3,635 nt of DNA. Origin: Escherichia coli. GTDB taxonomy: Bacteria; Pseudomonadota; Gammaproteobacteria; Enterobacterales; Enterobacteriaceae. A program made the position numbers. Of this stretch, positions 1 through 3,000 are shown one piece after another. The stretch is taken from assembly GCF_003334255.1 (NCBI RefSeq), contig NZ_QOWU01000117.1; one strand, 5' to 3'. Position 1 is the stretch's first letter; every line of letters starts with the position of its first letter.

Positions 1-3000
1 GTGGTCAGGGCATCATCGCCGTCAGACCTCGCAGGAAAACTGACGCAAAAACTGAAGGAAGGCTGGCAACCCTATGGTAGTCCGATTATCTCAAACGCGG
101 GTTATGGTGCTGAATTTATCCAGGCTATAGTCGCTGAAGGGGATATGACCTCTCCGGTAGTTTCACCGGGGGGAGATGGTACCCGGACTGTTGTTGTTGA
201 ACCAGAATATTACTTTGTCATTGCGCTGGCCGGACAGTCAAACGGCATGGCGTATGGTGAAGGCCTGCCGCTGCCGGAGACATATGACCGTCCGGACCCG
301 CGTATTAAACAGCTGGCGCGTCGCAGTACGGTGACACCGGGTGGTGCGGCCTGTGCATATAACGACATCATTCCGGCGGACCACTGCCTGCATGATGTGC
401 AGGATTTGAGCCGTTTTTCTCATCCGAAAGCCAGCGCAGAGCAGTATGGGTGTGTCGGACAGGGATTGCATATTGCCAAAAAGCTGTTGCCCTTTATGCC
501 GGAAAATGCGGGTATTTTGTTAGTGCCGTGCTGTCGTGGTGGCTCTGCGTTTACAGCCGGTGCTGACGGAACGTTCAGTGAAAGTTCAGGAGCGTCGGAT
601 AAATCTGAACGATGGGGCGTTGATAAGCCGTTGTATAAAGACCTGCTGACACGCACTCAGGCCGCGCTGAAGGCAAACCCCAAAAACATACTGCTTTGTG
701 TTGTCTGGATGCAGGGCGAGTTTGATTTAAAACAGGGAGCGTACGCCAGTCAGCCCGCCATGTTTGATGCCATGGTGGAAAAATACCGTTCTGACCTGGC
801 GGGAGTATCCGGTCAGTGCGCTGGTGCTTCTCCTTCTCTGGTGCCCTGGATTTGTGGTGACACGACGTACTACTGGAAGGAGACGTATTCAGCGCAATAC
901 GATGCCGTTTATGGCGCATACAAAACCAAAGCCGGTAAAAATATCTTCTTTGTGCCGTTTATGATGGATGACAATGGTCAGAAAGTCGGGACCAATGAAC
1001 CGTCAGAAGACCCGGATATTCCGGCTATCGGGTATTATGGTTCCGGTGGACGAACGGATGCGAAGAGCTGGACAACATCCGATCGTAAAACCCACTTTGG
1101 TTCATGGGCGCGTCGCGGAATTATTTCCGACCGTCTGGCAACAGCCATTCTTCTGCATGTGGGCAGAGTGGCAGATTTTGTTTCCGGGAAAGTGACAAAA
1201 GCCGCGGTTTCTTCAGGCGGAGGCGTATCGCAACCAGCACAGGAGAGTGGCGATACTCAGCCTGAAGCCGTTGTCCCGACAAAGATACAGTCAGTGCTGG
1301 CTTATGATGTGAATGCGGAAAATGCCGCTCTGGCTTCGCAGGGCTGGACGCTGACAGATGTCAAAAACACGCTGGTCAGTGACAGTGGTTCAGGTAAAAA
1401 AGCCCTTCGTCTTGAAAAACCAGAAAATGGTCTTGCACAGAAAAAGACCTGGAAAGTATCGCACGCAATTGATGCCGGTAAGGGGAAGGAGCTGTTCGAT
1501 AACGGCGGTGAAATCACGCTGCGCTTTAAAATCCCCGATGATGTATCTCTCAATGCTTCTGCAAATCAATATTCTGCGGGTATTTACTGGCGCGGTAGTG
1601 GATGGCCGGGAGCGGAATCAGAGGAGGGTTATATTGCGGCCTTCTATCTGCAGACTGATAAAACAAACATCAATGTGATGTATCATGCAAACACCACATC
1701 ACAGCGGCTTGGTAGTTATGGTCCGTTCGATCACGACTGGCACACGCTGACTTTCCGCTTCCCGGGTGGTGGCTCGCTGAACGTCACGCCGGTGCTTGAT
1801 AATGCAGCAGGAAAACCGTTTACGCTGACCAGATGGACGAATGCAGCCTTTGAGGCCAACGCGCTGGCAATTACGGATATTACCGGAAATGCGGCAACTT
1901 ACCCTGTGCTGATTGAAAGTCTTACTGTTGGTGTGAATGCCGTAGCAGCATAACAGACGAAAAAAAACCGCCAGCAACAGGAATGGAGACTGGCGGAGGT
2001 AATCCCAATGGAGAATCTAACGAAAGGATGCTTTCGACATCAATCATTTCTAAATGAAAACAGTTCTCATTGTCAACAGTAACGGTAATAAACCATGACA
2101 TTCATCAACCAGTTAATGCTGTACTTCTGTACGGTGGTCTGTGTGTTGTATCTTCTTTCAGGTGGATACAGGGCAGTACGCGACTTCTGGCGCAGACAGA
2201 TTGACAAAAGGGCCGCTGAGAAAATCAGCGCCACTCAGTCAGCCGGAGCAAAAACAGAAGCCCCACTCATTCCGGAACAACCTTCTTAATAACCCCTTTC
2301 AACGAGAAAATCCTATGTCAGAAATAAAATCGCTGGTCACTGCTGAGGCAGTGAAGGAAGTCCTGCGCTCTGAAGAAGTCCGGAGCGCACTGAAACAGCA
2401 ACTTCGGCAGAACCTTGAGGCGCGTCTTGATGCAGAAGTGGATTCAATTCTGGATGAATTGCTTGGTGCACAGCCGGAACCATCCCCGGAACTGCTTCCG
2501 GAACCACAGGCGGAAGATGTCACCACGGAAAATGGTGATATTCAGCCGGAGTCACCGGTGACGGATATGACAGACACACAACCCGAACCGGGCACAATGC
2601 TGTAACGGCGGGGCAGGGCCATCAGTAAAACACTGATGGCCTTTTTTATTTCCGGTAGCACAGGTCTGTCGGGGCGGGGATATGTATCAGATGGAAAAAA
2701 TATCAACGGGCATAGCCTATGGTACTTCTGCGGGCAGTGCGGGTTACTGGTTTCTACAGTGGTTGGATCAGGTTACTCCGTCACAGTGGGCTGCTATCGG
2801 GGTTTTGGGGAGCCTGTGTCTGGGGTTCCTGACATACCTGACGAATCTGTATTTCAAAATTAAAGAGGACCGTCGCAAGGCTGCCCGGGGAGAGTGATTA
2901 GGTGACTCAGAAACTCCACTATGGTTTATCGGTAGCCGTTCTGGCGCTGATTGCGGCAGGTGCTTCTGCGCCTGAAATCATCGACCAGTTTCTTGACGAA

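Follow-up and report, generated by a model that had tools for sequence, protein, structure and literature searches.

Do the two small genes that separate a sialate esterase gene from the lysis genes of an Escherichia coli prophage form a mobile element in their own right, or do they belong to something larger? The question arises in a stretch of 3,635 nucleotides (nt) from contig NZ_QOWU01000117.1, here called the window, which represents the late region, with accessory and lysis genes, of a 933W-like lambdoid prophage that lacks stx and carries, in order, a NanS-p-like SASA esterase gene, open reading frame 1 (ORF1), ORF2, the class II holin gene S and the lysozyme gene R. An earlier note, made from the sequence alone, had described positions 1954–2650 as a self-contained two-gene moron with its own leader and terminator. 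Our analysis shows that the pair is not an autonomous moron but the optional distal part of a conserved accessory cassette, composed of the SASA/NanS-p esterase gene, a putative convergent small transcription unit, DUF1378 (ORF1) and DUF826 (ORF2). This is not a new kind of element, and both genes are already catalogued, as DUF1378 and DUF826, and known in phage 933W as Orf25 and L0106. The new points are a cassette structure common to Mu-like prophages, a terminator anchored to S, and a likely convergent small RNA (sRNA) gene in the leader.

The interval is indeed not spacer, as the note had recognised. It holds two real, tightly linked genes with Pfam and PHROGs matches and signs of purifying selection, a 64-amino-acid (aa) ORF with a single transmembrane segment and, exactly 25 nt further on, a 96-aa acidic ORF:

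2095–2289, plus strand: DUF1378 gene (ORF1), 64 aa, ATG start; from Pfam PF07125, phrog_494, hydropathy and the ratio of non-synonymous to synonymous substitution rates (dN/dS).
2290–2314, plus strand: intergenic spacer of 25 nt, TAACCCCTTTCAACGAGAAAATCCT; near-invariant across alleles that differ at codon third positions.
2315–2605, plus strand: DUF826 gene (ORF2), 96 aa, ATG at 2315; from Pfam PF05696, phrog_311, AlphaFold2 and dN/dS.

ORF1 covers the whole Pfam model of DUF1378 (PF07125; E = 8.1e-36, query 1–59 on model 1–59 of 59) and belongs to phrog_494, of unknown function (E about 1e-37). Its orthologues are Orf25 of 933W, H0119 of VT2-Sakai and ECs_1210 of Sakai, and the RefSeq name of the orthologue is ‘DUF1378 family protein’. 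A hydrophobic stretch at residues 3–25 (Kyte-Doolittle up to 2.0) is followed by a basic tail, and the isoelectric point (pI) is 9.2. An alignment of seven sequences, including members only 38–50% identical, leaves L9, F11, V15, L18, L20 and G23-G24-Y25 invariant. Because of the positive-inside rule, the predicted topology is probably N-out/C-in, with a very short periplasmic N-terminus and the basic tail RAVRDFWRRQIDKRAAEK in the cytoplasm.

ORF2 matches Pfam DUF826 (PF05696; E = 2.4e-28, query 1–57 on model 1–59 of 75) and phrog_311, also of unknown function (E about 1e-37). RefSeq calls it ‘DUF826 domain-containing protein’, and its orthologues are L0106 of 933W, H0120 of VT2-Sakai and ECs_1211 of Sakai. 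The protein is strongly acidic (pI 4.05, 22 D+E vs 7 K+R, nine prolines), with a conserved helical domain in residues 1–52 and a proline-rich acidic tail of variable length. AlphaFold2 places helices at 10–17 and 20–50 with a predicted local distance difference test (pLDDT) score of 85–94 and gives the tail less than 50, predicting it to be disordered. The tail differs in length and sequence among alleles, and its C-terminal tip QPEPxTML is kept. The family is very small, with 32 representatives at 50% clustering among 1.84 billion proteins.

Between the window and diverged copies, dN/dS is 0.07–0.21 for ORF1; for ORF2 it is 0.08–0.35 over the N-terminal 52 codons and 0.2–0.42 over the whole protein. 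Judged by these ratios, both ORFs are under purifying selection, and our data show that they are genuine protein-coding genes of two small families restricted to enterobacterial prophages. The 25-nt spacer between them can still be made out in distant homologues where the gene call runs across it (database proteins P0117, P0128 and P0133), and it probably serves initiation or coupling of ORF2 translation.

The length of DUF826 is annotated inconsistently by RefSeq, its Prokaryotic Genome Annotation Pipeline (PGAP) and other gene callers, as 101, 134 or 138 aa. The ORF2 frame is open far upstream (2141–2605, plus strand), overlapping ORF1 out of frame, and the same is seen at two other loci of our collection (L003 10201–10605 and L103 4110–4526); calls of this long or fused kind seem to underlie phrog_8301 (139 aa). 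We rejected a long form of 134–154 aa, since the Pfam model and the distant homologues start at ATG 2315; a strong Shine-Dalgarno sequence at the position of this ATG in Mu-like alleles also disfavours it. On these sequence comparisons, the 96-aa protein starting at 2315 is the supported form. The most distant DUF826 relatives (L092 51–340 and L093 207–450) are 59–60 aa long and comprise the helical domain without the acidic tail. They stand alone with their own terminators, one by a glycosyltransferase gene and the other by a KilA-N gene, so the helical domain can function outside the pair.

Neither protein could be given a function. The note had been unable to place them in a named family; this stands insofar as no functional family can be assigned, but both proteins are Pfam domains of unknown function (DUFs). 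Profile hidden Markov model searches, of the kind it had proposed, returned only families of unknown function, and the fold searches gave no lead: with the AlphaFold2 model of DUF826, Foldseek had no match in the PDB and a best E of 4.8 in BFVD, and the modelled fold, a helix, a turn and a long helix with a disordered tail, is too simple to inform. NCBIfam holds no family for either protein, the PADLOC defence models match neither at E up to 1, and sequence-profile searches of the PDB gave only chance-level hits (E at least 0.04). The profiles of PHROGs, Pfam and NCBIfam show no likeness of either protein to holin, antiholin or other lysis families. In the literature we found no published function for either gene and nothing on L0106 of 933W; one paper names DUF1378 and DUF826 in this interval, only noting their presence between nanS-p and S, and a study of expression in phi24B lysogens did not cover these genes.

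What the pair belongs to emerges from its neighbours. Across 80 IMG/VR loci the order esterase, DUF1378, DUF826, S is invariant wherever the contig reaches, and the identity of the flanks to the window spans 47–100% for the esterase and 77–100% for the holin, from which we conclude that the pair's flanks have been reshuffled by recombination. Even loci whose DUF826 homologue is only 41–47% identical keep this gene order, and a SASA esterase gene precedes the pair at every locus with upstream DNA available (about 100 loci). A widespread lineage of Mu-like prophages carries tail-fibre genes, an esterase gene (684 aa), DUF1378, DUF826, com, mom and the prophage end in this order, with no holin adjacent to the pair and a lysozyme gene (encoding an N-terminus of the membrane-tethered signal-anchor-release, SAR, type) 26 kb away; its DUF1378 allele, P0167, is listed in 861 blocks of our collection. 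The pair is thus not conserved independently of its flanking genes, as a co-occurrence check might have found for a moron; it follows the esterase and moved with it into Mu-like prophages. Because the order is kept in lambdoid and Mu-like prophages alike, we take the moving unit to be the esterase plus the pair, which in lambdoid prophages sits between Q/pR' and the lysis genes and has been carried as a block into the Mu-like ones.

The pair is also optional. Complete E. coli genomes contain it at 2714 places, in 1052 of 5426 genomes and up to seven per genome, and among the matches listed the genes are annotated DUF1378/DUF826; the esterase occurs at 8857 places in 1997 complete E. coli genomes, and the pair is found at roughly 30% of the esterase places. 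It is missing, with esterase and holin present, from prophages PP2 and PP5 of strain E2348/69 and from Sakai Sp9, a presence/absence polymorphism, which is the only moron-like trait that stands. About 307–309 phage records carry the two genes, almost all of them Shiga-toxin (Stx) phages. In 933W the orthologous Orf25 and L0106 occupy the same position between nanS-p and S, with protein identities of 86% and 68–71%; unlike 933W, the prophage of the window is stx-negative, comes from a commensal-type E. coli and has a longer allele of the DUF826 tail (96 aa vs 90 aa). Outside this setting, the Stenotrophomonas phages BUCT708 and BUCT709 have DUF1378 as the last gene of an S-R-Rz/Rz1 cassette, overlapping the Rz stop codon. 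S and R of that cassette are homologues of the window's, and near DUF1378 there was no match to DUF826 or an esterase.

Juhala, Hendrix and colleagues gave the name morons to optional extra DNA that lambdoid phages carry in their late region. Like these, the pair is optional, lies in the lambdoid late region and is flanked by a terminator; unlike them, it has no detected promoter of its own, has a typical base composition, shares its terminator with the lysis cassette and travels with the esterase. The GC (guanine plus cytosine) content of ORF1 (48.7%) and ORF2 (52.9%) is not foreign relative to that of the esterase gene (51.9%), S (50.9%) and R (54.5%). The description as self-contained fails on the promoter, as a scan of the whole window found no plus-strand sigma-70-like promoter and none is plausible by eye in 1996–2094.

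The strong intrinsic terminator reported after ORF2 is present, but it does not appear to be the pair's own:

2615–2650, plus strand: intrinsic terminator with a 12-bp stem (2615–2643) and a 5-nt loop, followed by U6AUUU (TTTTTTATTT); from a terminator scan and folding.

Its folding energy is -22.6 kcal/mol (z = -3.99, equalled by 1 of 200 shuffles), and about 32 nt separate its end from the S start downstream. Among 24 distinct S-upstream sequences, 18 have a hairpin with a T-run 38–40 nt upstream of S, and the stems vary with compensation (CCATCAGT/ACTGATGG, CCGCCAGT/ACTGGTGG, CCATCGG/CCGGTGG). Sakai Sp9 and E2348/69 PP2, where S follows the esterase without DUF1378 or DUF826, have the S-anchored terminator too. 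This fixed distance to S, kept even at loci without the pair, suggests that the terminator belongs to the lysis cassette. Most plausibly, to judge from the established behaviour of lambdoid late operons, it would act as an insulator that keeps transcripts lacking Q modification from reaching S and R.

We next consider the AT-rich region between esterase and ORF1, in which the earlier note had correctly seen a hairpin and a palindrome. The spacer (1954–2094) has 41% GC vs 49–55% in its flanks and holds a hairpin (1968–1975 paired with 1989–1996) and the palindrome CGAAAG-GATG-CTTTCG (2021–2036). The note took this region for a leader of ORF1; its sequence is instead organised as a putative promoter-plus-terminator unit of the minus strand:

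2047–2076, minus strand: promoter-like element, TTGACA (2076–2071), 18-nt spacer, TAGAAA (2052–2047); from conservation across spacer variants.
1960–2041, minus strand: candidate sRNA, about 80 nt long and convergent with the esterase gene; a prediction based on promoter-like boxes and terminator.
1960–1996, minus strand: intrinsic terminator, stem CCGCCAGU/GCUGGCGG (1996–1989 with 1975–1968), U8 at 1967–1960; from sequence and folding.

The spacer hairpin cannot terminate plus-strand transcription, because on that strand the A-run precedes it. On the minus strand the 8-bp stem is followed by a U8 that stops 7 nt from the esterase stop codon. We compared 40 distinct esterase-to-ORF1 spacers, of which 30 were aligned as minus strand and all were folded individually; RNAalifold on a MAFFT alignment of the candidate sRNA misaligned the stems and yielded five pairs with little covariation, and per-sequence folding was used instead. 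A stable GC-rich hairpin with T5–T9 is present on the minus strand in 40 of 40 variants, and its stem changes are compensatory (GCUGCCGG/CCGGCAGC, GCTGCCGG/CCGGCAGC, CCGCCAG/CTGGCGG, CACCGGCAGGG/CUGCCGGUG, CACCGGCAGGG/CTGCCGGTG, GGCCAGCGCC/GGCGCTGGC). TTGAC is invariant or near-invariant at a fixed position, 19–24 nt from the ORF1 ATG, and is followed 16–18 nt downstream by TA(A/G)AAA or TTTAAA; both boxes are present in 38 of the 40 variants, and the sequence between them varies freely. The predicted fold of the candidate RNA comprises a 5' hairpin (the palindrome at 2021–2036), a weak middle hairpin and the terminator; the RNA carries the motif UUCUCCAU and would be antisense to the esterase-ORF1 junction of any plus-strand transcript. 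The AT-rich spacer most likely encodes, on the strand opposite to the two ORFs, a candidate RNA of about 80 nt.

The complement of the UUCUCCAU motif is seen on the plus strand as a conserved ATGGAGAA. The same strand has an ORF of 24 codons at 2008–2082 (MENLTKGCFRHQSFLNENSSHCQQ) with a strong GGAGG 9 nt upstream, roughly corresponding to ‘Orf24’ of 933W and H0118 of VT2-Sakai. In other alleles the frame closes after 4–7 codons, so it does not look conserved as coding sequence. One DUF1378/DUF826 locus (L045 4851–5003) has the spacer stem GGCCAGCGCC/GGCGCTGGC, nearer to that of PasC (see below) than to the window type, and lacks TTGAC at the usual place; its spacer may be an intermediate or a recombinant between two spacer types.

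Validated sRNAs are known from the same site. In enteropathogenic E. coli (EPEC) E2348/69, PasA (85 nt) and PasC (79 nt) are Hfq-dependent, northern-validated and encoded on the opposite strand between esterase and holin, drawn as ‘> < >’ between the sialate esterase gene and the holin (PMC8550237 Table S6). Their homologues in enterohaemorrhagic E. coli (EHEC) are EcOnc51 and EcOnc52 (PMC8550237 Table S6; Zhu et al. 2026 preprint, bioRxiv 10.64898/2026.05.13.724894), and RIL-seq, which ligates and sequences interacting RNAs, ties PasA to the 3' ends of esterase mRNAs. The candidate of the window resembles PasA and PasC in lying on the opposite strand between the esterase and holin genes, in being convergent with the esterase gene, in its length of about 80 nt, and in having a TTGACA box and an AGAAA-type -10 upstream. 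As in PasC, its terminator stem is GCCAG-rich with U7–U8 and abuts the esterase stop codon; the PasC terminator reads A7 plus GCCAGCG...CGCTGGC on the plus strand, with a TTGACA box at a similar distance. Unlike the window, the PasA and PasC loci of E2348/69 lack DUF1378 and DUF826.

An identity of the window element with PasA or PasC by blastn was tried and rejected, as the RNA body and promoter region have no similarity. From its sequence the element is thus a positional and architectural counterpart of PasA/PasC and a candidate only, which sequence does not place in the family but which may be a divergent relative. The published surveys of PasA and PasC used blastn with over 75% query coverage, and such blastn-based surveys would have missed the probable antisense sRNA of this spacer. 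Two sRNAs of stx phages, AsxR and EcOnc27, map 3' of stx2B and upstream of nanS-p, hence outside the window. In E2348/69 PP2 (L086 2462–2700) there are two tandem hairpins, each an A-run plus GCCAGC: the first abuts the esterase stop and matches the end of the ‘minor’ 236-nt form of PasA, and the second, 150 nt on, is the major PasA terminator, which suggests that the terminator module is duplicated there.

Several observations weigh against a minus-strand sRNA in the window. The proposed -10 (TAGAAA or TAAAAA) does not end in the consensus T, and for this reason the promoter scan missed the element. With blastn-short (word size 7, E up to 0.01), PasA and PasC match the E2348/69 loci only, and neither the window nor any locus with DUF1378. 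The Sakai catalogue of Hfq crosslinking and analysis of cDNAs (Hfq-CRAC) reports no peak at the homologous Sp5 spacer, where, however, IS629 disrupts the esterase gene, so this absence is not a clean negative. The same three facts, the imperfect -10 box, the lack of sequence similarity to PasA/PasC and the missing Sp5 peak, would suit another explanation, that the hairpin is a 3' stabiliser of the esterase mRNA, TTGAC is part of ORF1 translation initiation, and no minus-strand RNA is made. We regard this as rather unlikely, because a stabiliser would not need the plus-strand A-run by the stem, which is invariant in all 40 variants, and because TTGAC, at 19–24 nt upstream of the ATG, lies well beyond the Shine-Dalgarno position. 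Furthermore, TTGAC is paired with a conserved A-rich hexamer at promoter spacing, and the validated sRNAs show the same layout at the same site.

Taken together, these data are best explained by optional genes of an esterase cassette that would be transcribed by read-through, accompanied by a convergent sRNA and encoding a membrane-tethered pair, an account in which our belief slightly outweighs our doubt. Since no plus-strand promoter precedes ORF1, transcription of the pair most likely relies on read-through from the esterase gene, on induction as part of the Q-antiterminated late transcript, and ORF2 translation would probably be coupled to that of ORF1 via the conserved 25-nt spacer. Transcripts not modified by Q would stop at the hairpin 38–40 nt upstream of S, insulating S and R. 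The minus-strand RNA of about 80 nt would be fully complementary to the esterase-ORF1 junction and could act on that mRNA in cis, and also in trans. DUF1378 would leave its basic, amphipathic tail in the cytoplasm, where DUF826 is predicted to reside as a helical protein whose acidic tail is disordered and ends in a conserved tip. Given the opposite charges, tight linkage and co-inheritance of the two proteins, a membrane-tethered complex is the simplest model of how they would work.

In favour of this account is also P0133, a database protein in which DUF1378 and DUF826 read as fused in frame, though it is N-terminally truncated and may be a frameshift artefact. Other points count against parts of the account. 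A non-canonical plus-strand promoter may lie ahead of ORF1. A microarray study found ECs1211 to be growth-phase regulated, with signal in uninduced Sakai cultures, which would fit lysogenic expression. Finally, entry into the Mu-like phages may have occurred in a single event, and co-transfer with the esterase would then be no proof of a functional link.

The ECs1211 signal is also what the reading of the earlier note would predict, namely an autonomous moron with its own promoter and terminator, expressed in the lysogen and conferring a benefit such as superinfection exclusion or anti-defence. The presence or absence of the pair among closely related esterase-holin intervals and the strong terminator behind it fit this as well. 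We nevertheless judge it distinctly unlikely: no plus-strand promoter is matched, conservation in the leader suits a unit of the minus strand, the S-anchored terminator also occurs where the pair is missing, the GC content is not foreign (49–53% vs 51–55% in the flanks), the pair is never apart from the esterase in lambdoid or Mu-like loci, and PADLOC has no match. A toxin/antidote-like pair, in which the acidic protein would neutralise a toxic membrane protein, is highly improbable. It shares with the locus only the general layout of a small hydrophobic protein and a tightly linked acidic partner, whereas no toxin or antitoxin model is matched in Pfam, NCBIfam or PADLOC, either gene is also found without its partner, and up to seven copies per genome are typical of late-region cargo. 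Both this suggestion and that of anti-defence, put forward in the note, thus found no support.

If the pair is a companion of the esterase, it might serve it directly: membrane anchor and acidic partner could be accessory factors of NanS-p that localise, hold or release an esterase without a signal peptide. That the esterase-DUF1378-DUF826 order is strict in two phage backbones unrelated to each other, and holds at identities as low as about 41%, speaks for this, as does the prediction that all three products are cytoplasmic or face the cytoplasm. We still find such a role rather unlikely, as some 70% of the esterase loci in prophages are without the pair, no esterase accompanies DUF1378 in BUCT708 and BUCT709, short DUF826 proteins are found on their own, and the adjacency could stem from one transfer event.

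The proximity to S raises a role in lysis. Small membrane regulators of lysis include antiholins and, for SAR endolysins, the ‘releasin’ gp25 of phage Mu. DUF1378 can be likened to them as a very small single-pass inner-membrane protein encoded by or in a cassette of pinholin, SAR endolysin and spanin; it differs in having no similarity to lysis families in PHROGs, Pfam or NCBIfam, and in lying 26 kb from the lysozyme gene in the Mu-like prophages. The clues to lysis are that DUF1378 alone sits within the lysis cassettes of BUCT708 and BUCT709 and that all three phage backbones carrying DUF1378 encode endolysins with SAR-type N-termini. The pair adjoins S at all lambdoid loci examined. Our best guess at its role is that it could modulate lysis by pinholin and SAR endolysin, in timing or in endolysin release, which we consider possible but doubtful; the accessory role for the esterase comes next, and these estimates leave some room for roles of other kinds. 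Against it, a strong terminator parts the pair from S, the pair is far from the lysis genes in the Mu-like prophages, and about 70% of loci with esterase and holin do without it. A still wider proposal, of a four-part mobile cassette in which the pair, on the cytoplasmic face of the inner membrane, would tune SAR-endolysin lysis together with NanS-p release while the antisense RNA would control the esterase-pair junction, appears unlikely to us.

The pair sits in the Q-stx-nanS-p-lysis segment of Shiga-toxin phages and their stx-negative relatives, a segment that sets toxin amount and burst timing. About one in five complete E. coli genomes carries it, often in several copies. These are common, uncharacterised genes in a medically relevant phage segment, and their interest is modest; a vague label of ‘hypothetical proteins’ has here been turned into concrete experimental questions.

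The surroundings of the pair agree with the assignment of the window to a lambdoid prophage. The window shares 99.4% identity with the chromosome of the human commensal isolate E. coli SCU-104, where the equivalent region has ninB, rusA, ninH and the Q-region upstream and Rz and terminase genes downstream. The genes flanking the pair in the window are

1–1953, plus strand: NanS-p-like SASA carbohydrate (sialate O-acetyl) esterase gene; phrog_143, E = 4e-293, RefSeq ‘SASA family carbohydrate esterase’.
2682–2897, plus strand: class II (S21-type) holin S with the dual-start motif MYQM; phrog_9876 and phrog_20 (holin), RefSeq ‘class II holin family protein’.
2902–3435, plus strand: endolysin R (GH24 lysozyme) with the N-terminal SAR-like segment GLSVAVLALIAAGASA; phrog_7 (endolysin), E = 2e-62, RefSeq ‘lysozyme’.

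The esterase gene, which is the upstream member of the conserved cassette, has its true start 21 nt upstream of the first base of the window, and its counterparts at related loci contain the Pfam domains DUF1737, SASA and DUF6645. Counterparts of S belong to Pfam Phage_holin_2_1, and the MYQM start of S is encoded at 2682–2693 on the plus strand. Of the two products of the dual start in the S21 pinholin, the longer one (71 aa) acts as antiholin and the shorter one (68 aa) as holin.

Beyond R, positions 3436–3635 are AT-rich (40.5% GC) and contain a strong terminator-like hairpin on the plus strand at 3526–3558 (14 pairs). A small ORF begins at 3592, and RefSeq annotates hypothetical proteins of 60 and 43 aa ahead of Rz, so that the lysis genes are interrupted again beyond R by a terminator and small ORFs. 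With Rfam at a permissive threshold there was no match within 1954–2650, and a sub-threshold rimP-leader on the minus strand at 3502–3590 (E = 0.15), which overlaps the 3526–3558 hairpin, is probably due to chance. In the window S and R adjoin (2897/2902); in many related prophages inserted DNA parts them by 400–1500 bp, as at loci L019 (5799–6762) and L088 (5555–6246). The insert at L088–L090 consists of a DUF1327 gene and a 90-aa minus-strand ORF. Inside the lysis cassette, the gap between S and R is a second hotspot for extra genes.

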